DNA of 46,517 nucleotides from Elusimicrobiota bacterium (GCA_016204945.1 JACQJQ010000097.1:1-46517); one strand, 5' to 3'. Positions 5,314-42,218 are shown, counted from the stretch's first letter. Notes: a model not told the origin generated them from the letters alone. A program made the numbers and translations.

Positions 5314-6528
5314 TCAGCGGCGGCGAGGCGGAAGCTTTTTGAGAATGAGGTACAGCTCGCCGGAATCCCACACCTTGGCGGCCTCGGTCTTGGCGTCGGG
5401 GCCATGGCCCAGGAACAGGTCCACGCGGCCCGGGCCTTGGATGGCGCCGCCGGTGTCCTGGCACAGGACGAAGCGCCCGGATTCGGCCTTGCCGAGCAGC
5501 CGTCCTTGCGCGTCCGCTTGCGGCAAGGGCAGCCGCGCGTAGGCCGGGACGCCCAGGGGGATGGACTTGGGATCGACGGCGATGGAGCGGCCTGGAGTCA
5601 GCGCCCGCTCGATGGTGCCGAAGGGCATGCCGTCTTCCGGCGCCTCCGACACGTCGAAGAACACGTAGCGGGGGTTTTGGCTAAGCAGCCAGCCCTCCCC
5701 TTCCGGGTGCTCGATGAGGTACTGCTTGATCGCCGCCTTCGTGGCCTCCTCGCGCGTCATGGCGCCGGAGCCGACCAAGGCCATGCCGGCGCTCTTATAC
5801 GGCGCCCCGTTGTTGGCGGCGTACTTGGCGATCATGAAGCGCCCGTCCGGAAACCGGAGTAAGCCGCTCCCTTGTATGTGGAGATCGAGCCGGTCGAAGC
5901 CGTTGTCGAGCCAGGCGGCCTCCAAGCCGCGGCCCTCGAGCTGCTTGCGCACGTCGATGTCGCGGCGATTGAAGTAAGGAACGAGCCGGCCCCCCGCGTC
6001 CAGGCGCGCGCTGATGGTCTCCCCGTTGTATTTGGGGTTGAAGGCTCCCAAGTCCACGGTCACGAGGTCGGGGGGGCGGCGGTACAGAGGGTAGGCGAAG
6101 CGTTCGGTGCGCTTGGGACTGGCCGGCAGAATGGGTTGATAATAGGCGGAGAAGAAGGCGCCTCCGCCCTGAGTCGCGCCCATGACGCGGAAAAGTTCGA
6201 AGCCGTCCTTCAAGCCCGTCTCGAGCTCCGCGGGCGTGCCCGCCTTGCGGCGCAGCTCGAGCAGAGCCTCGACGCTTTCGACCAAGCGCCGCGCGCCGAC
6301 CGTGCTCGCGCCGATCAGGAACGTCTTCTCGCCGAGGCCGCGCAGATAGGAGAGATTATGTTCGGAGGCGCGAGCGAGCGAGTCGAGATCGAGGTCGTCC
6401 TGGATCCTCGGCCACTCGTCCGCGGGTAAAGGCCGGATCGCCTGACTCGTTGGAGCGCCGCGGGGAGGGGCGGCGCAGGCGACGAACAGAAGGGCGGCGA
6501 ATAGCGCCGGAAGGAATCGAGAAGGCAT
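5314..6528 (-). CDS. mltA: Membrane-bound lytic murein transglycosylase A (MltA family) lipoprotein
   Basis: MltA-like body (YYQPILPAS, LHIQGSGLLRFPDGR, SIAVDPKSIPLGVPAY, CQDTGGAIQGPGRVDLFLG). Start chosen at ATG 6528 (MPSRFLPALFAALLFVACAA lipobox) because TATCAT sits exactly 6 nt upstream. ATG 6543 is the alternative. The track start at 7077 is a shadow extension. Confidence 0.85.
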   Translation of the reverse strand: MPSRFLPALFAALLFVACAAPPRGAPTSQAIRPLPADEWPRIQDDLDLDSLARASEHNLSYLRGLGEKTFLIGASTVGARRLVESVEALLELRRKAGTPAELETGLKDGFELFRVMGATQGGGAFFSAYYQPILPASPKRTERFAYPLYRRPPDLVTVDLGAFNPKYNGETISARLDAGGRLVPYFNRRDIDVRKQLEGRGLEAAWLDNGFDRLDLHIQGSGLLRFPDGRFMIAKYAANNGAPYKSAGMALVGSGAMTREEATKAAIKQYLIEHPEGEGWLLSQNPRYVFFDVSEAPEDGMPFGTIERALTPGRSIAVDPKSIPLGVPAYARLPLPQADAQGRLLGKAESGRFVLCQDTGGAIQGPGRVDLFLGHGPDAKTEAAKVWDSGELYLILKKLPPRRR

Positions 6529-26900: not shown

Positions 26901-27374
26901 TCAAGGATTCTCCGTCGAGGCCTCGACGAGGCGGATGGCGTCGCGGCCGGACTCGCGAACCTCGTCGGGGACGTGGGGCAGTCCCAATTCCTCGTGGGTA
27001 TGCCAGCGGATGTCGTCGCTTTCATCCGGGCGATGGGCGTGGGCGCCCGCCTTGGCGCGCAGGTAGTAGATGAAGTCGATGTGGTGGTTGTGCCCGGGGA
27101 TTTCCTCGATCTGCACCCGCTGGGGCTCGTGCAGGGACTCGACGCGGCCGCCGCGCAGGACGGGCGCTCGCGGGGGCGAGATGAACTCGGCCTCGAGGCC
27201 GGTCTCCTCGCGCACCTCGCGCAGGACGCCCTCGTCCGTGGTCTCTCCCTCCTCGATGTGTCCGCCCGGGGGCAGCCACATCCCGAGCTTTTTGTGCTTG
27301 AGGAGGAGGGTCCGGCCGTCCCGGACCAGGTAGCCGGTGGCGACGAAGCAGCAGCGCCGCTTCGCCGCGCTCAA
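26901..27374 (-). CDS. NUDIX hydrolase
   Basis: Nudix box GGHIEEGETTDEGVLREVREETGL. The TTG start overlaps the upstream stop (TTGA). Confidence 0.9.
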   Translation of the reverse strand: MSAAKRRCCFVATGYLVRDGRTLLLKHKKLGMWLPPGGHIEEGETTDEGVLREVREETGLEAEFISPPRAPVLRGGRVESLHEPQRVQIEEIPGHNHHIDFIYYLRAKAGAHAHRPDESDDIRWHTHEELGLPHVPDEVRESGRDAIRLVEASTENP

Positions 27375-27829
27375 GGCGCCTGGTGGGAGGTGTCGAACGT
27401 GCGGCGCGCGGCGATGCGCTTCATTTCGGCGGCGGCGGCCGGATTCTCCCGAAGGACGAACTTGAAGTCGTCTGCGACCAAGGTGAACAGCGAGGTCGGC
27501 TCGGCGCAGACGACGCCGGCGTTGCGCGGCTCGTCGGAGATCAGCGCGGTCTCTCCCAGGAAGTCGCCGGCCCTCAAGGTCGCGACCTTCTTCGAGAGCA
27601 CGAGCCAGCGCCGCAGGCGGATCTCGACGCTGCCCTGGTGGACGATGTAGAACGCGTCGCCCTTCTGGCCCTGCGAGAAGACGGTTTCGCCCTTGTCATA
27701 GGAGTAGAGCATGATCGAGGGCAGCACGCGGTCGAGCTGGCCGACGGTGAGCGGGGTGAAGAACTCGACCTTGCGCAGCATGTTGGCGAGGAGCCCGAGC
27801 GCGTCCGCGCCGATCTCGATTTTTTTCAT
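27371..27829 (-). CDS. Stand-alone cyclic-nucleotide-binding (CAP-effector type) domain protein, with no output domain
   Basis: 152 aa. Beta-roll with an intact phosphate-binding cassette: GDFLGETALISDEPRNAGVV. No HTH or other domain follows. Confidence 0.85.
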   Translation of the reverse strand: MKKIEIGADALGLLANMLRKVEFFTPLTVGQLDRVLPSIMLYSYDKGETVFSQGQKGDAFYIVHQGSVEIRLRRWLVLSKKVATLRAGDFLGETALISDEPRNAGVVCAEPTSLFTLVADDFKFVLRENPAAAAEMKRIAARRTFDTSHQAP

Positions 27830-27843
27830 GAGACGACTTTACT

Positions 27844-30800
27844 TTATTTCCGGGCGGGTTTCGCGTGCAGCTCGGCTTCGAGCAGGGCGGTGAACGCCTT
27901 CACCGCGGCGTCGAGGTTCTGCTTCGCGGTGGTCCTCGCGCGGCCCTGCCGGAAGGCGCGGGCCCGGCTGACTTCCGCGAGCGGCCTCTCCGCCTGGCCG
28001 GCGAAGATCTCGGCGAGCCGGGAGTCCGCGCCCAGGAAGGCGTCGTTGCGGCCGGGGTGAAGGTAGCCGATGACCTCGTAGAACTCGCTCTCCGTCAGGC
28101 CGCCGGCCTTGGCGAAGCGGGCGATTCGGTCCCGGTACCAATTTTGGTCGTGCGCCTCGAGCAGATCGGCCACCAGCTGGTTTTCCATCCGCCGCAGGAT
28201 GAGCCCGAGCTTGTCCACGGTCTCCGGCGGCAAGGACGAGAAGAACGCGTACTGCGACCCCCCCTCCGCGCCGAAGCGCTCGATGGTGCCGCCCCGGGGA
28301 TCGAAGCCGAGCTCGTAGACCGCCTTCCAGAGCAGCTTGGTCGCCTGCAGGATGTCGTTGGAAGGGCCCGGCGTGACGTCCAGCACCGAGAGGTCGCCGC
28401 GCGGGTCCTTGCTCATGAAGATCCGCTCCATCGCCCGCGAGCCGAGGGCGGAATAAAGCCGCGCGATCACGCTTCGCGCCGTCTGCTCCTGGGCGGCGTA
28501 CTTCACGTAGCCGCCGACTCCCGGCTTAGGGGGGACGGCCGTCGCGTACTCGAAGCGCAGGCCTAGCCGGACGGCGGCGTAGGCATGGCCGAACTCGTGC
28601 ACCGCCGTCTTGATCCGCTCCACGGGCAGGCGGCCCGTCGCGGCCAAGGGCGGGAAGATCAGCGCGATCTCCTTGCGGTAAAGCTCCAGTTTTTTGCGCG
28701 AGGCGCCGCTTCGAGGCGCGAGCGTGGCGATGATCTCGGACTTGCCGGGCTTGAAGTCGAGGATGATGGTCGCGGGCGCCGTGGCCAGGCGCGAGGACTT
28801 GGGGATGCGGGCCAGGGCCTCCTCCAAATGGGAGGCGATGCGGTTCTGCGCGACGACGACGGTGTTGCGCGCCCCTTCCGAGGGGATGACCGTCTCGCCG
28901 AACAGGTAGCGGCGGTAGGCGGGCGTCATCTCGACGGCGAGCCGGCTTTTGTCCGTCAGACGGGTCTTGGCGACCTTGTCGGCCTGAAGCGCGATGAGCT
29001 TCCTGTAGTCGGGAGCGTCGAGCGGATTCATGATGTGCGCGCGCGGCATGAGCCGGCTGACGGTCTCGGGCAGGAACATGCGTCCCAGGACCTGCTTGAG
29101 CGCCGACGGCGTCATGGCCAAGGTCCGCGCCGCCCGCCGGGTGTCCTCGATGCTGGTCAGCCGCGGGTCGGCCTCGAAGCCGAACAGGTCGCCGCGGAAG
29201 TTCATGGTGATGATGTTGTAGGCGTCGCGTATGTCGATGACTTTATCGCGCCCGTAATCGCTTTTCGCCGGGATCGACGCCGTGCCGTCCTGCAGCAGGT
29301 CCTTGATGGCCGCCATGATGGGGCGGTTGACGACCATGCCCTGCTGATCGACCTCGAAGACCTTGTCGAGCTCCTCGAACAAGACGACGAACTTGCCGCC
29401 CTTGGCCTCTTTGCGGGCCACGGCGATGCCTTCGGCCAGGGTCTGTCCGAAATTCGCCAGGGCGTCCTGGGCGTCCGACGAGAAGGCCTGCATGTTGACG
29501 CGGACGGCGGGAAGATCGAGGTGCTTGGCGGCCAGATTGGCCAGCTCCGACTTGCCGATGCCGGGGAAGCCGGCGAACACGAGAAAGGGGGGCTGGCTGG
29601 CGACGGGTCCCGGGCGGTTGAGATAGGCGTTGAGCTCCTTCTCCACGAGCCGGCTGTGCTCCTCTTGTCCTATGAGGGACGCGTTGATCTTCTCGGCCAA
29701 CCCGGCGGCCAATTTCCGGCTCTTGGGGAAGCGGGCGGCGAAGACCTCTTTCTTGGTCGTGCGTTTTTCCTTCTCGGCCTGTTCCGGGAAATCGGGAGGG
29801 GCCGAGGCGATGCCGTCGGGCTGGGCGAAGAGCTTGGCGCTCGCGTCGAACTGCGCGGAGAACGTGAAGGCGGTTCCCGCCGCCGGTTTGCCGGAGCGCG
29901 ATAGCCGGGGAGTGACGGTCACTTCGGCCCGTTCGGTCTCGGGATTGAAATCCAAGGAGATCAGGCGCGGCTGGGCGAGAGACGGATCGCCCTCCCTGGA
30001 CGCCTTGGCGCCGAAATGAATCAACTGCTCGGCGAGAGCGTTGACCTTGGCGATCGTTTCGCGGGCGCCCGACGGAGCGAACACCGCGTTCCGGCGCAAG
30101 AACTCCATGAACGCCTTCGTATAGGAGACCGAGAGCCGCTTCGCGGCGTTGTCTTCCGTCGTCTCCTTTTCGATCGTGGCGTCGAGGGTCAGCTTGACGA
30201 TTTGAGCGTAGTCCGAGGCCGAGAGCGGCTTCATGATGACGGTGTTCGGAGCCAGGCGGCTGACCGTGTTGGCGCGGAACAGGCTGCTGAGCAGCTTGTA
30301 GCGCGCCGCGGAGTCCTTCTGGATCCAGGCGTCGAAGGCCTGGAAGTCGTCGATCGTGAAGTCGTAGTACTTCTTGGAGGTCTTGAGCGCGCTCGCGGAG
30401 AAATCCTCGATCTCCTTCGGACTGAAGTTCATCGTGGTGATGATCATGGCGTTGGAGAATCGGACTTCCGTCGCGTACTCCCCGGAGAGGAAGCCGTCGG
30501 TCAGGATTTGGTTGAGAGCCCCGATGAACGGAGTCGTTTCCTCCCCGGTCGCCGTGATTTCCGGCAGCTTGTCGATTTCATCGATCAGCAGGATGTACGG
30601 CTTATCCTTGTTCCTATCCGCGATTTCTCTGAGATCGTCCGCGTAGTCCGACGCGTTTCCGCCGCCTTTGACGTACTTCTGGACGTCGAGGCGCTCCACC
30701 TTGAATCCCAGCCGGGCGATCGCGTCCAGGATAGCGGTTTTCCCGATCCCGGGCAGGCCGATCAGGTGGGCGGCGATGGGGTCCTTGGTCCGCGAGCCGA

Positions 30801-31365
30801 AGCCCTCGAAATACTGGACGAGCCGGTCCTGCACGATCTTCGTCGCGCGGTCCTGCCCGATGATCCTGCGATCCACGAGCTCCTTGAGGCTGCGCGCCTG
30901 CTTGATGAGAGCTTGGCGTTCGTCCTCCCCGAAGCGCGCGGCCGCGATCTCGCGCTTGCGGTAAGGCGCGGACGTCTCGGCGCGCGCGGCGCCGTTTTCC
31001 GGCGCGCCGCCCTCGAAGGCGGCCGCGGCGGCGTCGGCGGACTTGGATGCGCCGTCGAGCGCGGCCTTGGCCGCGACCGGCTGGTCCTGGGCGGGGGTCG
31101 CCGCGGGAACGAGGCCGGCGGCCGGCGTCAGGGCGATCGGCGCGGCGAGAGGCGTGAGCGCGAGGTTCGCGGGCGCGGGCGTCATCGAAAGGTTCGGAGC
31201 CGGGGACAGCCCGCCCAGCGCGGGGCCCACGGCGGCCGAGACGCCGGTCCCGGAACCGATCGGAGCGACTCGTCCCAGCGTCTGCGACCGCGCTTCGCGC
31301 GCTCCCGGTAAAGCGGCGAGAAAGGCGGCCAATGCCAAGCGCGAGAGGATGCCGTTGAGGGTCAT
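27844..31365 (-). CDS. 1173-aa protein: N-terminal hydrophobic signal/anchor, Ala/Pro-rich leader, two ClpB-D2-like (AAA_2) ATPase modules, and a C-terminal FtsH-type M41 zinc peptidase
   Basis: Module 1: IIGQDRATK..., GLPGIGKT (30736-30759), ILLIDEIDK, MIITTMNFS, SRLAPNTVIMKPL. Module 2: LIGQEEHSR..., GFPGIGKS (29548-29571), VVLFEELDK, NIITMNFRG, SRLMPRAHIMNPL. Peptidase: HEFGH (28585-28599), then GPSNDILQATKLLWKAVYELGF, which parallels FtsH GASNDIERAT. Confidence 0.8.
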   Translation of the reverse strand: MTLNGILSRLALAAFLAALPGAREARSQTLGRVAPIGSGTGVSAAVGPALGGLSPAPNLSMTPAPANLALTPLAAPIALTPAAGLVPAATPAQDQPVAAKAALDGASKSADAAAAAFEGGAPENGAARAETSAPYRKREIAAARFGEDERQALIKQARSLKELVDRRIIGQDRATKIVQDRLVQYFEGFGSRTKDPIAAHLIGLPGIGKTAILDAIARLGFKVERLDVQKYVKGGGNASDYADDLREIADRNKDKPYILLIDEIDKLPEITATGEETTPFIGALNQILTDGFLSGEYATEVRFSNAMIITTMNFSPKEIEDFSASALKTSKKYYDFTIDDFQAFDAWIQKDSAARYKLLSSLFRANTVSRLAPNTVIMKPLSASDYAQIVKLTLDATIEKETTEDNAAKRLSVSYTKAFMEFLRRNAVFAPSGARETIAKVNALAEQLIHFGAKASREGDPSLAQPRLISLDFNPETERAEVTVTPRLSRSGKPAAGTAFTFSAQFDASAKLFAQPDGIASAPPDFPEQAEKEKRTTKKEVFAARFPKSRKLAAGLAEKINASLIGQEEHSRLVEKELNAYLNRPGPVASQPPFLVFAGFPGIGKSELANLAAKHLDLPAVRVNMQAFSSDAQDALANFGQTLAEGIAVARKEAKGGKFVVLFEELDKVFEVDQQGMVVNRPIMAAIKDLLQDGTASIPAKSDYGRDKVIDIRDAYNIITMNFRGDLFGFEADPRLTSIEDTRRAARTLAMTPSALKQVLGRMFLPETVSRLMPRAHIMNPLDAPDYRKLIALQADKVAKTRLTDKSRLAVEMTPAYRRYLFGETVIPSEGARNTVVVAQNRIASHLEEALARIPKSSRLATAPATIILDFKPGKSEIIATLAPRSGASRKKLELYRKEIALIFPPLAATGRLPVERIKTAVHEFGHAYAAVRLGLRFEYATAVPPKPGVGGYVKYAAQEQTARSVIARLYSALGSRAMERIFMSKDPRGDLSVLDVTPGPSNDILQATKLLWKAVYELGFDPRGGTIERFGAEGGSQYAFFSSLPPETVDKLGLILRRMENQLVADLLEAHDQNWYRDRIARFAKAGGLTESEFYEVIGYLHPGRNDAFLGADSRLAEIFAGQAERPLAEVSRARAFRQGRARTTAKQNLDAAVKAFTALLEAELHAKPARK

Positions 31366-31369
31366 CGTT

Positions 31370-33148
31370 TCAGTACCAATCCTCGATTTCCGTGGATGTG
31401 CCGCGCCAAAGCTTCCTTTCGGCGGCGCTCAGGAAGCGCTTGTGGACCACGATCTCGAAGACGTTCTGGTCGAACCACTCGCGGTAGAGATGGTAGACGC
31501 CCTTGTTGCCGGCCTGCTCGCCCCAGGAGTTCTCCACCTTGAACTTGACGACGGGCTTCCGGGGGTCCGGCTGGTCGAGGCCGGTGAGGACCATGGCGTG
31601 ATTGACTCCGATCCGGCCGAAGTAGGCGGCCTGCTTGCGCGTCAGGGACGGCGTCGCCTCGTCCGGCGTGAACTCATAGAGCGGCGCGCGGTCGAAGACG
31701 TCCGGGTGCATGATGCCGGTTTTGTGGTCGATGTCCCGGCCGGCGTCGGCCGCGAACCAGACCGGCTGGCCGCCCCTGATCGCCCGGGCGGCCAAGGCGG
31801 CGAGGCGCTCCGAGCGCACGTTGAGGAAGCGGAGGTCGAAGCCGGGTTGCCCGGGCGAGGATTTGCCGATGGCGGAGTTCCTCACCTCGTAGACCTTATC
31901 CGTCTTTTTGCCGGGGTAGCTCGAGACCGAGAGATAGTCGTTCGGGTTGAACTTCACGAAGTCGCGGGCGAACTCGCGCGGAGTGTAGGTCTTGAGGCGC
32001 GCTTGCGTGCTCTGGACGCGGCCGGACGTCCGCGTCCGGCCCGCGCGCCGATGCTCGAAGCGCGACGGAGGCGCGCCGAGGTGCGTGACGAGGATCTTCC
32101 AGACGCGCGTCATGCCTCGCTCCTGGATGTCCCGGGCGAGGCTCGCCTCGCGGCCGGCCTTGTACTGCTTGGCGTTGGCCAGCATCTCCGCGCCGGTGGC
32201 GGCCAGGCTGTCCTGGAGCTCCGCGAGCATCGCCTCGGTCGCTCCGGAGCTGATGGTCTCGCCCATGGCGCTCTTGGGGATCAGGCCGTATTTGGAGACG
32301 AGGAAGGCGAAGTACTCGTACCAGCCTCCGTCCCCGAGATTGGGGGTGACGGCCATGCGGCGCCGGTCGGCGGGAAAATCTTTCGGCGACGAGCGCCGAT
32401 AGACCTTTCGGGCGACCTCCTCGAGGTGCCGGTTGGATTTTTCCAGCATGTTGAAGAAATGGAGGTAGTTTTCCGAGAACTCGAAGTCCTTCGGCGCCGT
32501 CTTGTCGGCCAGCAGCGTGGACCGGATCATGTTGAGGCCGGCGAAAATCCAGCAGCGTCCGGACTGCTGCTGATCGGTGATGGGGCCCATGGGAATCTCG
32601 ACGGTGTAGGCGTCGGCGTGATTCTCGAGAACCCGGCGGTTGATCGCGGCGTTCCGGAATCCCACGCGCTGGACGATGTCCTGCAGGCGCCGGCTCTGGG
32701 CGTCGGCGGACCGGCCGCGGGCGATCATGGCGTCGATCCACGGCAGCGGGATGCCCTCGCCCGGACGCTGCGGGCCGCTTCCATCGAAGGCGGCGTCGGC
32801 GCCGGACTTGGACGCGTCGTCGCTCGACTCGGGGGCGCCGAGGGCCACGGCCTGGAGCGCCGCGCCTTCGAGCGCGGCATGAGCGGCTGCCGGCCTATCC
32901 TCGGAGGAAAGCGCCGTCGGGACGAGGCCGGGGGCGGGCGTCGGAGCGAACAGGAGCGCGGCGTCCGGATTCGCGGGCAAAAGCGCCGAGGCCGGGATCG
33001 GCGCCGCCGAGGCCGCGCCGAGCGGCGCGCCGACCGCGCCCAGGCCCGGAACCGCCGCTCCGATCCTAATCGCGGTCTGCGCGTGAAGCGGGACTCCGGA
33101 AAAAACGGCGAGGAGGGCGCTCAGCAGGGCGCGCGATATGGGTTTCAT
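31370..33148 (-). CDS. C1B-family cysteine peptidase (aminopeptidase C / bleomycin hydrolase-like) with signal peptide and Ala/Pro-rich leader
   Basis: MKPISRALLSALLAVFSGVPLHA signal. Catalytic motifs QQQSGRCWIFAG, VNHAMVLTG, VENSWGEQAGNKGV. Its stop lies 4 nt before the next ATG. Confidence 0.85.
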   Translation of the reverse strand: MKPISRALLSALLAVFSGVPLHAQTAIRIGAAVPGLGAVGAPLGAASAAPIPASALLPANPDAALLFAPTPAPGLVPTALSSEDRPAAAHAALEGAALQAVALGAPESSDDASKSGADAAFDGSGPQRPGEGIPLPWIDAMIARGRSADAQSRRLQDIVQRVGFRNAAINRRVLENHADAYTVEIPMGPITDQQQSGRCWIFAGLNMIRSTLLADKTAPKDFEFSENYLHFFNMLEKSNRHLEEVARKVYRRSSPKDFPADRRRMAVTPNLGDGGWYEYFAFLVSKYGLIPKSAMGETISSGATEAMLAELQDSLAATGAEMLANAKQYKAGREASLARDIQERGMTRVWKILVTHLGAPPSRFEHRRAGRTRTSGRVQSTQARLKTYTPREFARDFVKFNPNDYLSVSSYPGKKTDKVYEVRNSAIGKSSPGQPGFDLRFLNVRSERLAALAARAIRGGQPVWFAADAGRDIDHKTGIMHPDVFDRAPLYEFTPDEATPSLTRKQAAYFGRIGVNHAMVLTGLDQPDPRKPVVKFKVENSWGEQAGNKGVYHLYREWFDQNVFEIVVHKRFLSAAERKLWRGTSTEIEDWY

Positions 33149-36031: not shown

Positions 36032-38269
36032 TCAGTCCTTGCGCAGCATGCGCTGGAGCCAGCCCGCGAGCCCGCCGCGGTGCAGGGCGCAGTCGCTGCG
36101 CGGCTCGGTGCCGGCGGCGAACCATTCGCCGCGCCTCCCGGGGCAGCCGGAGCGCGCGACCATGCCCGACTCCGGGCAGACGACGACCGAGACGACGTCT
36201 TCCGGACGGGCGGCGGGCTCCCCGGGGCGCTCCGCGGCGGCCTCCTTCATGAACGCGGCCCACAGCGGCAGCGCGTCCGCGGCGCCGGTGAGCCTGAGCG
36301 CGCGATTGCGGTCGTCTCCGACCCAGACGCCGGCGAGCAAGGACGGCGTGTAGCCCACGAACCAGGCGTCGCGGCCGTCGTTGGTCGTGCCGGTCTTGCC
36401 CGCGGCCGGGAAGGTCGCGCCGAGATTCTTGAGGCCGCGCGCTGTGCCTTCCTTGACCACGCCTTCGAGCAAGGAGTTCATCAGGAACGCCGTCGCCGGA
36501 TCGAGCGCCGCCGAGGTTTCGGGTTCCGCCGCCTCGAGCACGACGCCCTCGGAGTCCACGACCGAGGTCACGAGGCGCGGCGCGGAGCGGACGCCGCCAT
36601 GGGCGAAGGGCGCGTAGGCGCTCACGAGCTCGAGCAGGCCGACCTCGGAGGAGCCGAGCGCCAAGCCCAGGTCGTCGCTCAGGGGGCTCGTGATGCCGCA
36701 GTCCCGGGCCGTTTCCTGGATGCGCCTGAGTCCGACGCGCTCCGCGAGGTCGAGGGTCGCCGCGTTGAGCGAGCGGGCCAAGGCCCGGCGCATCGTCGCG
36801 GTGCCGAGGTAGACGCCGTCGTAGTTGGCCGGGGACCAGTCCTTTCCGGCGCCGGGCCACGTTTTCGGCTTGTCGCGCAGGATCGTCGCCGGCGTCAAGC
36901 CCATCCGGAGCGCCGCGGCGTAGACGAAGGGCTTGAACGCCGAGCCGGGCTGGCGCAGGGCCTGCGTCGCGCGGTTGAACTGGCTCTCGCCGAAGCTGCG
37001 GCCGCCCGCCAGCGCCAGGACCGAGCCGTCGCGCGGGTCCATGACCGCGAGCGCCGCCTGATGCCGCGACGCGGCGAGCGTCCTGCGCGCGAGGCCCTGC
37101 AGGACGGGATCCATGGCGGTGTGGACCGAGAGGCCGTGGCGATTGAGCGAATCGCCGCCGTAGCGCGGCAGGAGCCGGCGCACGACCTCGGCGGCGTAGT
37201 AGGCGGAGTCGCGCCGGTCTTCCTGCGCGGCGCCGCGCGCCGTCGCGAGCGGCGAGTCGAGCGCGGCGTCCAGCTCGAAGCGCGAGATCATGTTCTCCTC
37301 GCGCATCCGGCGCAGGACGTGGTCGCGCCGGGCCTGCGCCGCCGCGGGGTCGCGGAAAGGGTTGTAGGCGCCGGGGCCGGGTATGATTCCGACGATCAAG
37401 GCCGACTCCGGCAAAGTCAGGTCGGAGGCCTCCTTGGAGAAGTAGTGGCGCGCGGCGGAGCGCACGCCCATGACGCTCGAGGGGCCGTCCTGGCCGAGGT
37501 AGATGTGATTGAGGTAGAGGGTCAGGATGCGCTTCTTGTCGAGCCGCAGCTCGAGATAGACGGCGAGCGCCGCTTCCGCGAGCTTGCGCCGGAGGGTGCG
37601 GCGCGGAGAGAGGAAGAGGTTCTTCGAGAGCTGCTGCGTGATCGTGCTGGCGCCCTGCAGATCGCCGCCGCGCAGATTGGAGAGCGCCGCGCGCGCCATC
37701 GCGCGCGGGTCCAGGCCGTGATGGCGCCAGAAGCGCTTGTCCTCGGCGGCGACGACCGCGTCCTTGAGCGACGCGGGAATCTGCTCCCACGAGGCGGGCT
37801 CGCGCCGCTCGGCGCGGGCGCCCGAGAGTTCGACCATGAGCTCGGGCTCGAGCCGTATCTCGGGGATCGTGGCGCCCGACTCGTCGAAGACGCTCCACGC
37901 GCCCACGGCGGAGCGGCGCAGGATGAAGACCCCCTCGTTCTGCTCGGAGCCGGGGATGCGGTGGCCGCGCAGGAAGACGGCGAGCTCGGGCGGCGTCCAG
38001 CGGTACTCGCCCTTGGCGGGCATCTCCTCCGCGCGGCGGTAGCCGAGTCGCTCGAGGCGCTCGATGAGCCGCTCGGCCTCGCCGCGGCCGCCGTCTTGGA
38101 TCGGAAACGGCGCCGCCCAGATGCGCGTCGAGAAGCTCACGCCCAGACCGCCGAGCACGAGCGAGGAAAGCTTGCGCTCGGCCTGGAACACGAGCCAGAG
38201 CGACGCGAGGGCGGCCGCGGCCAGGAGAGCCGCCGACGCCCGGAGCCAGCCGGAGGACCGGCGCGGCAT
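36032..38269 (-). CDS. Class A penicillin-binding protein (bifunctional transglycosylase/transpeptidase)
   Basis: GT51 motifs EDKRFWRHHG, GASTITQQ, RKLAEA. Transpeptidase motifs SAFKP, SLN, KTGTT. N-terminal TM anchor. Confidence 0.9.
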   Translation of the reverse strand: MPRRSSGWLRASAALLAAAALASLWLVFQAERKLSSLVLGGLGVSFSTRIWAAPFPIQDGGRGEAERLIERLERLGYRRAEEMPAKGEYRWTPPELAVFLRGHRIPGSEQNEGVFILRRSAVGAWSVFDESGATIPEIRLEPELMVELSGARAERREPASWEQIPASLKDAVVAAEDKRFWRHHGLDPRAMARAALSNLRGGDLQGASTITQQLSKNLFLSPRRTLRRKLAEAALAVYLELRLDKKRILTLYLNHIYLGQDGPSSVMGVRSAARHYFSKEASDLTLPESALIVGIIPGPGAYNPFRDPAAAQARRDHVLRRMREENMISRFELDAALDSPLATARGAAQEDRRDSAYYAAEVVRRLLPRYGGDSLNRHGLSVHTAMDPVLQGLARRTLAASRHQAALAVMDPRDGSVLALAGGRSFGESQFNRATQALRQPGSAFKPFVYAAALRMGLTPATILRDKPKTWPGAGKDWSPANYDGVYLGTATMRRALARSLNAATLDLAERVGLRRIQETARDCGITSPLSDDLGLALGSSEVGLLELVSAYAPFAHGGVRSAPRLVTSVVDSEGVVLEAAEPETSAALDPATAFLMNSLLEGVVKEGTARGLKNLGATFPAAGKTGTTNDGRDAWFVGYTPSLLAGVWVGDDRNRALRLTGAADALPLWAAFMKEAAAERPGEPAARPEDVVSVVVCPESGMVARSGCPGRRGEWFAAGTEPRSDCALHRGGLAGWLQRMLRKD

Positions 38270-39190
38270 TTAGAAGCGCACGCCGAAGCCGACGTGGTGG
38301 GCCTGGCCCAGAGTGCGCTTTTCGGCCATGGCGTAGTCGAGCGAGAAGCGGCCCTCGCGCATGCCGACGCCCACGGTCAGGCGCGCGAAGTCGGAGTTGA
38401 GGCGCCAGCCGGCGCGCAGGGCGATCGAGGTCGCGGCGCCGAAGTCCATCGCGAGCTCGGAGCCGAGCGCGCCGATGAGCGCCTCATCCCGCGTCTTGAT
38501 CGCCTCGGCCGAGGCGAGCAGGCGGGTGACGGTGACATACGAATCGACGTCCTTGGCCTCGCCGCTTTTCCAGGACCAGGACGCGCCGCCGCGCGTCGTG
38601 AGGGGAAGGGGATCGCTTTCCCGCTCGAACTTCACGCCCGGCCCGGCGTTCTGGAGGGCGGCTCCCAGGCTCAGGCCCGGGAGCGGCGTCTTCCATTGGG
38701 CGCCGACGTCCGCGGCGAAGCCCGCGGCCCGCGCCTCCTGGGCCAGCTCGAAGCGGTAATGCTTGCCCGCGGCGCCCACCGCGAGGCCGCCGGGAAGCGG
38801 CAGGCCCCAGGCCAGGTGCCCGACGTAGTCGCGCTGGGCGGTCCGCGTCTCCGCCGCGCCGTTCGCGAAATGAAGGTCGACTTTCCCGGCGTCGTAGTAG
38901 GAGAGGCCCGCGGCGGCCGCGCCGGCGGGCAAGGGCTGGGCCCAGCCGATGAAGCCGAAGGAGTCGTCGAGCACGCCGCTGGTGAAGGCCGTTTCGAGCT
39001 GGGCTCGCCGCGCGGCGGCGCGCCCGGCGGGGTTGGCGCCCAGGGACGAGAGCCCGCCGGGAACCGCCGCGTACGCGTCGGCCATGGCGGCGGCGCGCGG
39101 GGAGAGCGAGCGGCGCAAGGTGGGCGAGCCGGCCGCTTGCGTCGGGGCGGCGGACAGGAGAAGGAGGGCCGCGAGCCCGAGCCCGCTCAT
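38270..39190 (-). CDS. PorV/PorQ-like (UPF0164-type) outer-membrane beta-barrel
   Basis: ATG 39190 overlaps the upstream stop (ATGA). Signal peptide, then AMADAYAAVPGGLSSLGANPAG, typical of this barrel family. Ends ...HHVGFGVRF. The track start at 40648 is a shadow extension. Confidence 0.6.
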   Translation of the reverse strand: MSGLGLAALLLLSAAPTQAAGSPTLRRSLSPRAAAMADAYAAVPGGLSSLGANPAGRAAARRAQLETAFTSGVLDDSFGFIGWAQPLPAGAAAAGLSYYDAGKVDLHFANGAAETRTAQRDYVGHLAWGLPLPGGLAVGAAGKHYRFELAQEARAAGFAADVGAQWKTPLPGLSLGAALQNAGPGVKFERESDPLPLTTRGGASWSWKSGEAKDVDSYVTVTRLLASAEAIKTRDEALIGALGSELAMDFGAATSIALRAGWRLNSDFARLTVGVGMREGRFSLDYAMAEKRTLGQAHHVGFGVRF

Positions 39191-40944
39191 CGGATGACCA
39201 CGATCTTGCTCTTGATCGCGATCTTGGGGCCGTTGACCGCGACGAAGTACAGCCCGCTTGGGACCGCCGCGCCGGAGGCGTCCTTGCCGTCCCAGGCTAC
39301 GGTGAAGGCGCCGGCGTCGCGGTGATCGTCGAACAGCGTGCGCACCGGCCGCCCGTCCGAGTCGTACACGCGCAGCGAGACGCGGCCGGAGGAGAAGATC
39401 GTCGTGTCGATCGTCGTCGGCGTCGCGTCCCGAGGGCGCAGGAGATTGCCCGTCAGCACCACGGAGCCCGGAGCGTAGTCGATGAGCAGGGCGTTGGCCG
39501 CCGTGGCCGCAACGCCGTCGGCGTTCGTCACGGTCAGGTCCCAGTTCCCGAGCTCCTGATTCTGGGTCGCGAACGTCGCGGTGATGTGCTGGTCGTCGGT
39601 CCGGTTGACGCTCGTGCCCGCGATGGTGACGGCGCCCTTGGTGATGGAGACCGACGGGAGCAGGGAGAAGATCTCGCCCGCGACGGTCAGGGGAATCGAG
39701 CCCGCGCTTTGGTAGACCGTGGACGGCGACAGCGAGACGGGAGCGGGCGCGCCGGTCAAGGCCGAGCGGACGTCCCCGGTCGAGAAGGAAGCCTCGTAGT
39801 AGGAGTAGTACAGGCGCCAGCGGAAGGAGTCGGTGGAGCGGACCGGAACGGGGGAGGAGAGCGCGCCCGAGGCGACGGCGGTGGAGACGCGAACGCCCGA
39901 CTCCAGCGCGAAGGAGGAGCCCAGGGCGTCGCTCGACAAGGCGCTCAGGATGACGGTGGCGCTCGATGCCCCGCTTTGCGGCTGGGAGTAGAAAAGGCGG
40001 ATGGTGCCGTCGGTCAGCTTGGCGGCTCCGGACTCGTAGGCGGTCGTGGACAGGACGACCGACGAGGCGCCCCACGTGGCGCCCTCGTCGGTCGAGCGCG
40101 CCGTGAAGATCTGGCGGTCCGCGAGGTCGTCGCCCCCGTTGAAGTCGCGCGTGTAGTACAGGCGCCAGTCGCCGGAGTCCAAGACGACGAGGCGCGGCAT
40201 GCCGACGTAGGTCGCCGCGCCGTCGACCGCCGCCGCCGTCTCGTTGGCCCAAGCCAGGCCGTCGGCCGAGGTCGCGCTGTGGATGCGGAAGGCGCCGGTC
40301 GTCGAGACGATGGAGTAGAGCATGCGGAAGCCGCCCGCCGCCAGCGGCTGGAGCGCGCAGCCCGTGATTGCGACGGCCGACACCGAGGGCACGGTGTTCG
40401 TGTCCACGCGCACTCCCGCCTCGCCGGCCCAGGCGACGCCGTCGACCGACGTCGCCGAGAGGATCGCCGTTCCCGAGCTCGCGTGCGGGGCGCCGCTGGA
40501 GACCGCGGGGAGGTAATACATGCGCAGCGGCGCGTAGGCCGCGCCCCCCGTGTCGCCGGTGAAGGCCTGGGCGGTCGCCGAGGAGAGGACGATCGCGCTC
40601 TCCTTGTCGAACACGGGAATCGCGCGCGCGGGCGAGGCGGCGGCCCATAGCAGCGTCCAGATTCCGACGGCCCGGCTCAAGGTCCGCGCCGCTTTCTTGA
40701 GGAAAGCGAGCTTTTCGGCGCGCGCGAGCGCCTTGATCCGGGCTTCCTCGATCAGGGCGGCGGAGCGGGTCAGCCCGTTCTTGCGGTAGACGAGGCGGAC
40801 CGGCCGCCGGCTTCGCGTGTAGGCCGCGCCTCGCCCCAGGTTGTGGGCGCGGATGCGCGCGGCGACGTCCTTGGCGATGCCGGTGTACAGGCTCTTGTCG
40901 GCGCAGCGCGCCAGATAGACGGACCAGACCGCGGAAGGCTTCAC
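39187..40944 (-). CDS. One continuous ORF: GIY-YIG (YhbQ-like) domain, signal-peptide-like helix, BNR/sialidase-like repeat region, and a FlgD-Ig / T9SS-type C-terminal domain
   Basis: GTG 40944 is preceded by AGGA (8-nt spacer). WSVYLARCADKSLYTGIAKDVAARIRAHNLGRGAAYTRSRRPVRLVY is the GIY-YIG part. An internal TTG at 40680 would give MSRAVGIWTLLWAAASPARA. Asp-box STDEGATWG. Tail: RVYDSDGRPVRTLF...WDGKDASGAAVPSGLYFV...KIVVIR. Confidence 0.65.
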   Translation of the reverse strand: MKPSAVWSVYLARCADKSLYTGIAKDVAARIRAHNLGRGAAYTRSRRPVRLVYRKNGLTRSAALIEEARIKALARAEKLAFLKKAARTLSRAVGIWTLLWAAASPARAIPVFDKESAIVLSSATAQAFTGDTGGAAYAPLRMYYLPAVSSGAPHASSGTAILSATSVDGVAWAGEAGVRVDTNTVPSVSAVAITGCALQPLAAGGFRMLYSIVSTTGAFRIHSATSADGLAWANETAAAVDGAATYVGMPRLVVLDSGDWRLYYTRDFNGGDDLADRQIFTARSTDEGATWGASSVVLSTTAYESGAAKLTDGTIRLFYSQPQSGASSATVILSALSSDALGSSFALESGVRVSTAVASGALSSPVPVRSTDSFRWRLYYSYYEASFSTGDVRSALTGAPAPVSLSPSTVYQSAGSIPLTVAGEIFSLLPSVSITKGAVTIAGTSVNRTDDQHITATFATQNQELGNWDLTVTNADGVAATAANALLIDYAPGSVVLTGNLLRPRDATPTTIDTTIFSSGRVSLRVYDSDGRPVRTLFDDHRDAGAFTVAWDGKDASGAAVPSGLYFVAVNGPKIAIKSKIVVIR

Positions 40945-41030
40945 GGGTCCAATCCTAGCAGTCCTATGGGCGTCCGTCCAGAAGCGGCGGCGTAGGTCTT
41001 TAGGCCCATGCGAATCCATGCGCAAAGGCC

Positions 41031-41036
41031 TATGAT
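41031..41036 (+). promoter_or_regulatory. -10-like box TATGAT, 6 nt upstream of the PLD gene GTG
   Basis: ggccTATGATcgcgggGTG. I found no convincing -35. Confidence 0.35.
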
Positions 41037-41042
41037 CGCGGG

Positions 41043-42218
41043 GTGAAGATCCTGGGAGGCGCCCTCGCCCTCCTGCTGGCCGCCGGCTCGCCCGCGGGGG
41101 CCGGCCTTCCCGGCGCTCCTTGGCCTTCCGCCTTCCCGGTTCCGCTGCCCGGCCGGGCCGCGCGGCCTCCCGCCCTCGCCGCGCCCGCGGTCCCCGACGT
41201 CGTCTTCAAGGGACGGGCGATCAAGGGCGTCCAGTTCAGCCGAGGCGACCGCATACCGGCCTCCCTCGTCGAGGCCATCGACCTCACCGAGAGGACCCTG
41301 CTTCTCGCGCTCTACGATCTGCGCCTGCCCGAGGCGGCCGACGCGATCCTGCGCGCGAAGGCCCGCGGCGTCGAGGTCCGCCTGGTCTACGACGAAAGCC
41401 ACGCCAAGCTCGACGGCGCCGAGATCCTGTCCGGGCCTTCCGACGAGTACCGGGCCCTCGTCGCCGCGGGCGTGCCGACGCGGCTGCTCAAGGGCGGCGG
41501 CTCCTTCGGGATCATGCACCATAAATACGCCGTGTTCGACGGCGAGCTCCTGATGACGGGCTCGTTCAACTGGACGCGCGCGGCCGACGACAGGAATTTC
41601 GAGAACGCGGCGTTCAAGACGGACCCGGCGCTCATCGCGGGCTTCACCCGCAACTGGGAGTGGATGTGGAGCCTTTCCGGGGCCGCCGCCGGCGCGCCGC
41701 CCGCCGACCCGCTCAGGCCGATCGTCTTCGCCGGCGGCCGGTACCCGCGCTACGCGTTTTCCCCGCGGGGCGGCGTCGAGGATATGCTCGTGGACGCCTT
41801 CGGCCGCGCGCGGCGCACGATCGACGTCGCGATCTTCAGCTTCTACTCCCGGCGCGCGGCCGACGCGCTGATCGCGGCTCGGGCCCGGGGCGTCGTCGTG
41901 CGCGTCGCGGCCGACTCGTCGCAGTCGCGCCGCTCCCAGGCGCTGCTCGCCTTGCGGAGCGCGGGCGTCGATCTGCGCCTGAGCGCGGGCCGGGGCGGCC
42001 TGGGCGTGCTTCATCATAAGTACGCGCTTGTCGACGGCGCTTTGCTGGTCGGCGGCTCCTACAACTTCTCGCAGAACGCCGAGCTCTACAACTTCGAGAA
42101 CGACCTGTTCACCGTGGAGCCCGGCGAGGTCGCCGCGTTCGGCGAGGAGTTCGCCGCGGTCTGGGATCAGGCGCACTTGCCGGCTCCCGGTGAGCTTCCC
42201 GTTCCGGACGGGCCGTGA
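41043..42218 (+). CDS. Secreted phospholipase D superfamily protein with two HKD motifs (Nuc/PLD-like)
   Basis: Signal peptide MKILGGALALLLAAGSPAGA. MHHKYAVFDGELLMTGSFNWT and LHHKYALVDGALLVGGSYNFS. Confidence 0.85.
   Translation: MKILGGALALLLAAGSPAGAGLPGAPWPSAFPVPLPGRAARPPALAAPAVPDVVFKGRAIKGVQFSRGDRIPASLVEAIDLTERTLLLALYDLRLPEAADAILRAKARGVEVRLVYDESHAKLDGAEILSGPSDEYRALVAAGVPTRLLKGGGSFGIMHHKYAVFDGELLMTGSFNWTRAADDRNFENAAFKTDPALIAGFTRNWEWMWSLSGAAAGAPPADPLRPIVFAGGRYPRYAFSPRGGVEDMLVDAFGRARRTIDVAIFSFYSRRAADALIAARARGVVVRVAADSSQSRRSQALLALRSAGVDLRLSAGRGGLGVLHHKYALVDGALLVGGSYNFSQNAELYNFENDLFTVEPGEVAAFGEEFAAVWDQAHLPAPGELPVPDGP

Follow-up and report, generated by a model that had tools for sequence, protein, structure and literature searches.

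Several described systems come close to a gene that we find on the minus strand of a 46,517-nucleotide (nt) stretch of DNA from an Elusimicrobiota bacterium (GCA_016204945.1, JACQJQ010000097.1:1-46517; the whole stretch is called the window, and all positions are counted from its first letter). The single gene fbcH of Bradyrhizobium japonicum, reportedly described by Thony-Meyer et al. (PNAS, 1991), is said to encode one product that yields cytochromes b and c1 on cleavage at an internal signal peptide. The small GIY-YIG proteins of the UPF0213/YhbQ-YazA family resemble the first part of the gene, and to our knowledge no function has been established for this bacterial family. Further counterparts are Rosetta-stone fusions of overlapping genes, type II bitopic proteins (RodZ, RseA-type anti-sigma factors) and, in Bacteroidota, the pairing of PorV with cargo that carries a type-A C-terminal domain (CTD) of the type IX secretion system (T9SS). 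YhbQ and YazA are only listed as Slx1 relatives in a published account (PMC7017083). The window gene (39187-40944) encodes in one frame a YhbQ-type GIY-YIG module, a signal-peptide-like segment and an exported part made of a beta-propeller and two beta-sandwich domains. This fusion is genuine, and a group of Elusimicrobia from groundwater has conserved it. On balance, we regard its product as probably a precursor, born of a Rosetta-stone fusion, whose internal signal peptide is still cleavable and would be cut by signal peptidase I to give two proteins. What is new is a variant that joins two known kinds, the Rosetta-stone fusion and the internal-signal-peptide precursor, with a processing mechanism that is plausible and testable. 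Literature searches on YhbQ-type GIY-YIG proteins, on T9SS in Elusimicrobia and on internal-signal-peptide polyproteins retrieved nothing specific, and the fusion is undescribed in the searchable literature.

The fused gene lies in a minus-strand open reading frame (ORF) at 39187-41025; from GTG 40944 to the TGA at 39189-39187 it encodes 585 amino acids, and the identical protein is present in the public collection (P0001). The GIY-YIG part runs on without any stop codon to the hydrophobic segment LSRAVGIWTLLWAAASPARA, which is followed directly by IPVF. The window DNA has about 70% G+C, and ORF length by itself is therefore weak evidence. The G+C content of third codon positions (GC3) in this one frame is 0.91 in the GIY-YIG part, 0.90 in the signal peptide and 0.95 in the mature part, and it falls to 0.63 upstream of 40944. 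Because GC3 stays near 0.9 throughout, the two parts belong to a single continuous coding frame and not to a chance ORF in GC-rich DNA. The original prediction, made from the DNA alone, had placed a GIY-YIG domain in frame with an exported protein; the ORF, the PF01541 match and the lack of intervening stops bear this out, and the TTG codon at 40680, the STDEGATWG motif and the AGGA 8 nt before GTG 40944 that it pointed to are all where it put them. The fusion also recurs well beyond the window. PF01541 and the exported part share one polypeptide in 93 of the 120 best homologues (47-79% identity), nearly all from metagenome-assembled genomes (MAGs) of Elusimicrobia, and both parts are in one frame at 24 of 35 loci from species-representative genomes, that is, in 24 other species-level Elusimicrobiota genomes. 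Since it recurs to this extent, the fusion is far beyond chance. The junction (40620-40720) is free of indels in independently assembled contigs from three groundwater metagenome runs (X1, X2 and X3), one of which differs from the window by a single substitution at 40771. Two of the loci carry other taxonomic labels, 'Candidatus Endomicrobium trichonymphae' (L006, CALRXP010000152.1) and 'Planctomycetota' (L015, DATLLK010000448.1). These labels are probably wrong, the loci having 68-71% G+C, 72-79% identity to genes of Elusimicrobia MAGs and the same synteny.

The nuclease module (residues 1-88; 40681-40944, minus strand) is of the UPF0213/YhbQ type, with a GIY-YIG fold of the Slx1-type URI kind. 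PF01541 matches residues 7-77 (40926-40714) with an E-value of 4e-11 and 43.4 bits against a gathering cut-off of 22.6, and the UPF0213 structures 1zg2 and 1ywl in the PDB are matched at 1.4e-10 and 5.9e-10, respectively. The AF2 model gives an alpha/beta fold over residues 1-71 with pLDDT values of 75-93. The first 88 residues correspond to a full-length family member, sharing its motifs (Y..YTG, R, H-N, E) and its C-terminal helix, which ends, as in the family, in IKxLxRxxKlxll. Unlike family members, the window protein has no stop codon here, and its last helix continues without a break into the signal peptide, behind which come the 477 residues of an exported protein. Across 70 homologues, Y20, R30, H34, N35, E67 and other residues are at least 90% conserved, with the catalytic-motif residues nearly invariant, and in distant orthologues the GIY-YIG part retains 69-71% identity as against 48-53% for the exported part. 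This pattern argues that the nuclease residues are kept under purifying selection and that the nuclease part is both translated and selected. Its nearest relatives are stand-alone proteins of 90-140 residues. Among the 150 nearest representatives, a recurrent combination of GIY-YIG and signal peptide was not seen outside this group; the longer YhbQ-type proteins there are fused to unrelated partners. Four of these (P0144, P0245, P0262 and P0185) look like sporadic read-through fusions with the YhbQ-type domain at the N terminus, the partners in this set including a DUF2461-like protein, a YidD-like protein with a hydrophobic segment and a GNAT-like region. Such sporadic fusions of small GIY-YIG genes suggest that read-through fusion is a general hazard for these genes, given how compactly and with what overlaps they are placed.

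The segment that joins the two parts (residues 89-108, LSRAVGIWTLLWAAASPARA; 40621-40680, minus strand) has the make-up of a signal peptide, and signal peptidase I is predicted to cut between A108 and I109 (ARA before the cut and IPVF after it; nt 40621/40620). Charges at K83, K84 and R87 lie just upstream, and about four Lys or Arg residues precede the core. In 63 fused homologues, the hydrophobic core has a mean of 13.7 residues (10-17) within an uncharged span of 15 on average; position -1 is Ala in all 63 and position -3 is Ala, Val, Ser or Cys in all 63, position -2 is unconstrained (entropy 1.95 bits), Pro is common at -4 and Arg occupies -18 in 46. These features equal those of the unfused relatives, in which the same segment is the N-terminal signal peptide, and the core has not been lengthened. 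The basic n-region, a core whose mean length falls within the usual 7-15 residues and small residues at -3 and -1 are what Sec and signal peptidase I recognise, and only the location, beginning at residue 89 and not at the N terminus, departs from the rule. The segment shows the classical pattern for signal peptidase I, maintained by selection, and its core has not grown to the length of an anchor. AF2 places a low-confidence hinge at residues 100-105, between the helix that contains the core and the propeller. Two other kinds of signal were considered and rejected. A Tat signal is not the explanation, for the RSRRP sequence represents the YTRxRRP motif that belongs to the GIY-YIG family itself and lies within that fold, 40 residues upstream of the core; a lipoprotein signal would need a lipobox Cys, which is absent.

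The origin of the fusion can be followed in orthologous loci, which share the order of a divergent phospholipase D-like (PLD) gene, then GIY-YIG, propeller, PorV-like and penicillin-binding protein (PBP1) genes. The original prediction had suggested looking for orthologues with a separate GIY-YIG gene, and five syntenic ones from sister and basal lineages have exactly this (L028, L029, L034, L040 and L041). All of these but L034 have a GIY-YIG ORF of 88-121 codons whose stop is overlapped, as GTGA, by the GTG that starts the following gene; L034 has a TAG, then 1 nt and an ATG. In the window's clade, and probably independently in a second clade, the two frames have been joined without a linker. 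The unfused exported proteins start with an ordinary signal peptide of the form V/M-R-x-hydrophobic-AxA, with xPxF after the cleavage point. Because the GIY-YIG stop and the next start overlap, a 1-nt indel accounts for the fusion; comparison of an unfused junction (AGKRP, stop, then VRAPLL) with that of the second fused clade (KKAGRVLAAALL) fits such a frame change, and in the fused locus L020 the ancestral GTG persists as an internal Val codon. The GIY-YIG gene is missing altogether in L001, L003, L004, L026, L033, L035 and L037, where the exported protein stands in other gene contexts. In a bootstrap neighbour-joining tree of the mature region (fast distance method, 200 replicates), a first fused clade that includes the window is recovered in 199 of 200 replicates, and its sister (176/200) is the unfused trio L029/L040/L041 (200/200). 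A second clade has fused and GIY-less members (133/200), and a basal group contains unfused members (200/200). The simplest history drawn from this distance tree is that separate overlapping genes are probably ancestral, with two independent fusions and some losses. As in other Rosetta-stone overlap fusions, the GTGA overlap of the orthologues becomes one frame through a single-base change. The difference is that the downstream partner is an exported protein, so that a folded domain now precedes and buries its signal peptide; even so, two clades have kept the fusion.

Some neighbourhoods of these relatives deserve mention for themselves. In the GIY-less L001 (3166-6001) and L003 (3154-6001), uvrA ends 0-18 nt before the propeller gene; a DNA-repair gene thus adjoins an exported protein that elsewhere is preceded by a UvrC-like GIY-YIG nuclease, which may be coincidence. 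In L034, the unfused GIY-YIG gene is preceded at a distance of 48 nt by a tRNA-Cys gene (5871-5946), and the block of promoter, GIY-YIG, propeller and PorV genes sits in a different upstream context, as if moving as a unit.

The start of the fused gene is preceded by a promoter-like element (40952-40982, minus strand), with a -35-like TGGACG (40980-40975), a 17-nt spacer and an extended -10 sequence, TGC-TAGGAT (40960-40952), that ends 7 nt before GTG 40944. The original prediction had taken the AGGA within it for a Shine-Dalgarno sequence. Orthologues argue otherwise, having TACGAT, TACCAT, TATAGT or TAAGAT at the same fixed distance. All 31 loci compared have a TAnnnT hexamer 6, 7 or 8 nt ahead of the start codon, any other spacing of such a hexamer occurring never more than twice; its variants (TAGGAT, TACGAT, TACCAT, TATAGT, TATAAT and TAAGAT) are in half of the cases not Shine-Dalgarno-like. 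The hexamer follows TGn in 29 loci, with a -35 sequence resembling TRGACG 17 nt upstream. Because the hexamer varies while T-A-x-x-x-T and the 6-8-nt spacing persist, AGGA is more likely part of an extended -10 box than a Shine-Dalgarno sequence, and the mRNA is predicted to be leaderless. The orthologues of the divergent PLD gene have TAnnnT, exactly 6 nt and GTG in about 20 loci, and we read both the fused gene and the PLD gene as leaderless. Such a design fits downstream cistrons that depend on coupling (GTGA, ATGA) or on fusion. A sigma-54 promoter was considered for TGGACG...TGCT and rejected, the spacing being wrong. In the window itself, the PLD gene has TATGAT, 6 nt and GTG (41031-41045, plus strand), and in L024 and L030 it is an unrelated upstream gene that has this arrangement before it; the lineage may commonly use leaderless starts. 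The 98-bp divergent intergenic region also holds, at 40985-41035, dense half-sites of the ATRGGNC type, among them an inverted repeat (TAGGCCCATGCGAAT/ATGCGCAAAGGCCTA), CCATGCG twice and TAGGTCTTTAGGCCCA. Orthologues conserve these half-sites in part (TAGGTCCAAAGACCTA in L005, for instance), and they could be an operator array; part of them is the PLD -10 box on the opposite strand.

Our proposal for how one gene would give two proteins is as follows. The operon would be transcribed from the conserved extended -10 promoter as a leaderless mRNA beginning at GTG 40944, so ribosomes would enter only at the nuclease start, and because no stop codon follows the nuclease part they must run on into the signal segment. 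The basic 88-residue GIY-YIG domain would stay in the cytoplasm by the positive-inside rule, the internal signal would enter Sec as a hairpin and signal peptidase I would cut after A108. A propeller protein of about 50 kDa would then be released to the periplasm and passed, via its CTD, to the PorV-like outer-membrane barrel; the nuclease would keep the signal-peptide remnant and be either tethered to the inner membrane or freed after signal-peptide proteolysis. Covalent coupling would in this way replace translational coupling, with still two proteins in two compartments, the same as those of the ancestral operon. FbcH is reportedly alike in being one gene with an internal Sec-type signal peptide and a signal peptidase site that gives two mature proteins, the cleavage being predicted in the window. 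FbcH is said to join two subunits of one membrane complex, whereas the window gene joins a soluble cytoplasmic nuclease to outer-membrane-bound cargo without a known functional link. In the manner of an FbcH-type gene, the modules are separate in the five two-gene loci and are joined here by a signal peptide with a conserved site.

Several points weigh against this precursor. Cleavage, topology and leaderless transcription are all read from sequence conservation, and targeting to Sec could be slowed by the 88 residues of pre-folded domain that precede the signal. In the AF2 model, one helix spans residues 75-102, running from the nuclease into the hydrophobic core, and a signal-anchor would look alike. 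With regard to the destination of the exported part, the Por_Secre_tail model TIGR04183 gives 19.2 bits, below its cut-off of 23, and none of the T9SS core components (SprA/Sov, PorK/L/M/N, PorU) was found among the scanned window ORFs. The promoter-like element was not called by a consensus promoter scan (8 of 12 positions matched, below the threshold), and leaderless mRNAs with a GTG start are inefficient in Escherichia coli. Finally, the tree is a neighbour-joining tree only, and the node of the second fused clade has 133 of 200 replicates.

The alternative that survives best is a permanent bitopic inner-membrane protein, in which an uncleaved signal-anchor would link a cytoplasmic nuclease to the periplasmic propeller, Ig-like domain and CTD, possibly reaching the PorV-like barrel. 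A basic N-terminal domain, one hydrophobic helix and extracytoplasmic beta domains make a common type II topology, as in RodZ and the RseA-type anti-sigma factors with their N-in cytoplasmic domain, single hydrophobic helix and periplasmic C-terminal part; the continuous AF2 helix agrees with it, and the fusion has been long maintained, probably in two origins. Those proteins have uncleaved anchors of about 20 residues, however, whereas the window segment has signal-peptide length and an invariant A-x-A. The core of just 10-17 residues, in an uncharged span of about 15, shows no lengthening relative to unfused relatives, and A-x-A is invariant while position -2 and the core vary and Pro is common at -4. 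Moreover, the exported part works as a free protein in unfused and GIY-less orthologues, and a CTD with a PorV partner implies an outer-membrane destination. We therefore consider a permanent anchor unlikely, though it is the alternative to be taken most seriously. A bitopic protein had been the first option of the original prediction: the topology that it gave the precursor appears right, and a lasting anchor is less likely than cleavage in view of the invariant cleavage-site features. A bolder form of the same thought, which we hold to be quite unlikely, is an uncleaved trans-envelope bridge, in which a nuclease held at the inner membrane would be joined via the propeller and two Ig domains to the PorV-like barrel; if true, it would couple an envelope or surface event physically to DNA cleavage or processing. 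In a milder variant, cleavage does occur, but the remnant of the signal peptide would keep the nuclease at the membrane, and this location would be the function under selection.

An improbable third account makes the exported protein mainly from an internal start, TTG 40680, with the long form minor or non-exported. This codon is correctly placed for an n-region, GTG or ATG occurs nearby in some orthologues, and L020 retains the ancestral GTG mentioned above. But the stretch from the nuclease domain to the hydrophobic core has no in-frame ATG, GTG or TTG that is conserved among fused orthologues, and a usable internal start is lacking altogether in nine fused species (L009, L010, L015, L017, L019, L022, L024, L025 and L031), so nested initiation cannot be a general route to the exported protein. 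TTG 40680 itself is not conserved and has neither a Shine-Dalgarno-like motif at proper spacing nor a TAnnnT before it, the RNA at the junction has no special structure (fold z = -0.37) and a leaderless mRNA, if that is what is made, takes up its ribosomes at the 5' end. The two nested products entertained in the original prediction are disfavoured on these grounds. An RNA element at the junction was rejected on the same fold score and on a best Rfam match with an E-value of 0.11, below the gathering score.

That the first 88 codons are an untranslated or decaying nuclease remnant, and that the exported protein alone matters, would agree with the absence of the GIY-YIG gene from the seven GIY-less relatives, but it is very improbable given that GIY-YIG is the best-conserved part (69-71% versus about 50%) with nearly invariant motif residues, that its in-frame GC3 is 0.91 and that start codon and promoter are conserved in 31 of 31 loci. 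The possibility that an error of assembly or sequencing deleted a stop or moved the reading frame in the window is, although single-nucleotide frame differences do distinguish fused from unfused orthologues and L032 and L042 have frame breaks that are possibly errors, practically negligible, since three independent run assemblies are identical at the junction and the same frame is found in 24 other species and about 90 proteins. The original prediction had asked about support across the junction, which the three runs' contigs give by agreeing over 40620-40720 without an indel, and had named a lost or mis-assembled stop as an option: mis-assembly is ruled out by the three runs and 24 species, and an evolutionary loss of the stop is what the two-gene orthologues point to. 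As for the two loci with frame breaks, in L032 (6001-7726 of CP096137.1, a 'complete genome') the orthologue is spread over three frames (1, 3 and 2 by tblastn), probably through long-read indel errors. In L042 (2678-3010) the GIY-YIG ORF stops at a TGA, the next signal peptide, RRLIAAAALSAWPALAGA followed by LPVF, is in another frame, and no ATG, GTG or TTG lies upstream of RRLIAAAALSAWPALAGA; the locus is either a fused gene with a 1-nt error in the contig or a fusion that broke recently.

The exported part was modelled together with the nuclease, the whole-protein AF2 model (pLDDT 87) comprising nuclease, helix, hinge, a propeller of about five blades and two beta-sandwiches. The propeller (residues ~112-397; 39754-40611, minus strand) is a confident all-beta structure (pLDDT about 90) whose 19-20 strands group in fours; each blade carries an Asp-box-like motif, SxDGxxW (for example, STDEGATWG), and such motifs lie near residues 166, 226, 284, 337 and 371. 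The strand count suggests five blades rather than the six of sialidases. In Foldseek searches it resembles sialidases and GH43/GH130 enzymes, matching the sialidase 1eut at an E-value of 1e-12 and the GH43 structures 4qqs and 5c0p with TM-scores (target) of 0.69-0.73; PF13088 (BNR_2) stays below its gathering score (24.5 versus 31.4 bits). A middle Ig-like beta-sandwich (residues ~401-490; 39475-39744, minus strand) is assigned from AF2 secondary structure (pLDDT 89-96) and has a weak match to a CoaZ repeat (E-value 0.015). The C-terminal beta-sandwich (residues ~494-585, ending in SGLYFVAVNGPKIAIKSKIVVIR; 39190-39465, minus strand) is FlgD-Ig-like and resembles a T9SS type-A CTD: PF13860 (FlgD_ig) matches residues 518-571 at 4e-11 and 43.1 bits (cut-off 27), and PorZ (5m11) is among the fold-search matches. 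In the original description of the domains, GIY-YIG and FlgD-Ig were right, and the BNR repeats and the T9SS tail amount to sub-threshold resemblances.

The fused gene's TGA overlaps the ATG (ATGA) of a gene for a 306-residue outer-membrane barrel of the PorV/PorQ family (38270-39190, minus strand). The family model NF033709 (PorV_fam) gives 107 bits against a cut-off of 90, and the equivalog models fall short (PorV, 32 versus 250; PorQ, 41 versus 220). A PorV-like gene follows the propeller gene in every locus examined. The window thus resembles the T9SS cargo and PorV pairing of Bacteroidota in a C-terminal beta-sandwich of about 90 residues that ends G-LYFV...K-KIVVIR and in the PorV/PorQ-family barrel gene adjoining the cargo gene. 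It differs in that the host belongs to Elusimicrobiota, that the scores fall below the cut-offs of the TIGR04183, PorV and PorQ models and that no SprA, PorKLMN or PorU gene was seen among the window ORFs scanned. A class A penicillin-binding protein with transglycosylase (2.7e-60) and transpeptidase (5e-33) domains is encoded next (36032-38269, minus strand); its gene abuts the PorV-like gene and is a member of the conserved gene string, with synteny in about 25 loci. On the other side, the divergent PLD-family gene (41043-42218, plus strand; PLDc_2, 6e-46) encodes two HKD motifs and an N-terminal signal peptide and has its TATGAT 6 nt before GTG 41043; its synteny, like this arrangement, is conserved in about 20 loci. 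No DNA-repair genes were found among the scanned window ORFs. A defence system was considered and rejected, PADLOC giving no match for the fused or the PorV-like protein and the PLD neighbour having no more than the generic PLD domain in common with DrmC. Elsewhere in the window, a 1194-residue ORF (27844-31428, minus strand) with two AAA+ modules and a sub-threshold M41 peptidase match encodes an unusually long FtsH/Clp-like protein and is followed by a gene for a cNMP-binding protein (27371-27838).

Altogether, the locus offers a natural and long-lived case of a folded cytoplasmic domain ahead of a bacterial Sec signal peptide, one that probably arose twice. A single-base change at the GTGA overlap converts translational into covalent coupling, and does so on an apparently leaderless operon. 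If the predicted cleavage is true, bacteria would have a second kind of precursor through which one gene supplies two compartments with a protein each, and the product would be a useful test of how much N-terminal cargo Sec and signal peptidase tolerate. The finding also bears on annotation, since public pipelines name the fused proteins of 565-620 residues 'GIY-YIG nuclease family protein' or 'putative endonuclease' (P0010, P0023, P0060, P0074 and others), names that misdescribe five sixths of the protein and hide its exported propeller/Ig part. Finally, that a YhbQ-type nuclease is so persistently found with a propeller/PorV/PBP1 envelope operon may be a handle on the function of the UPF0213 family.

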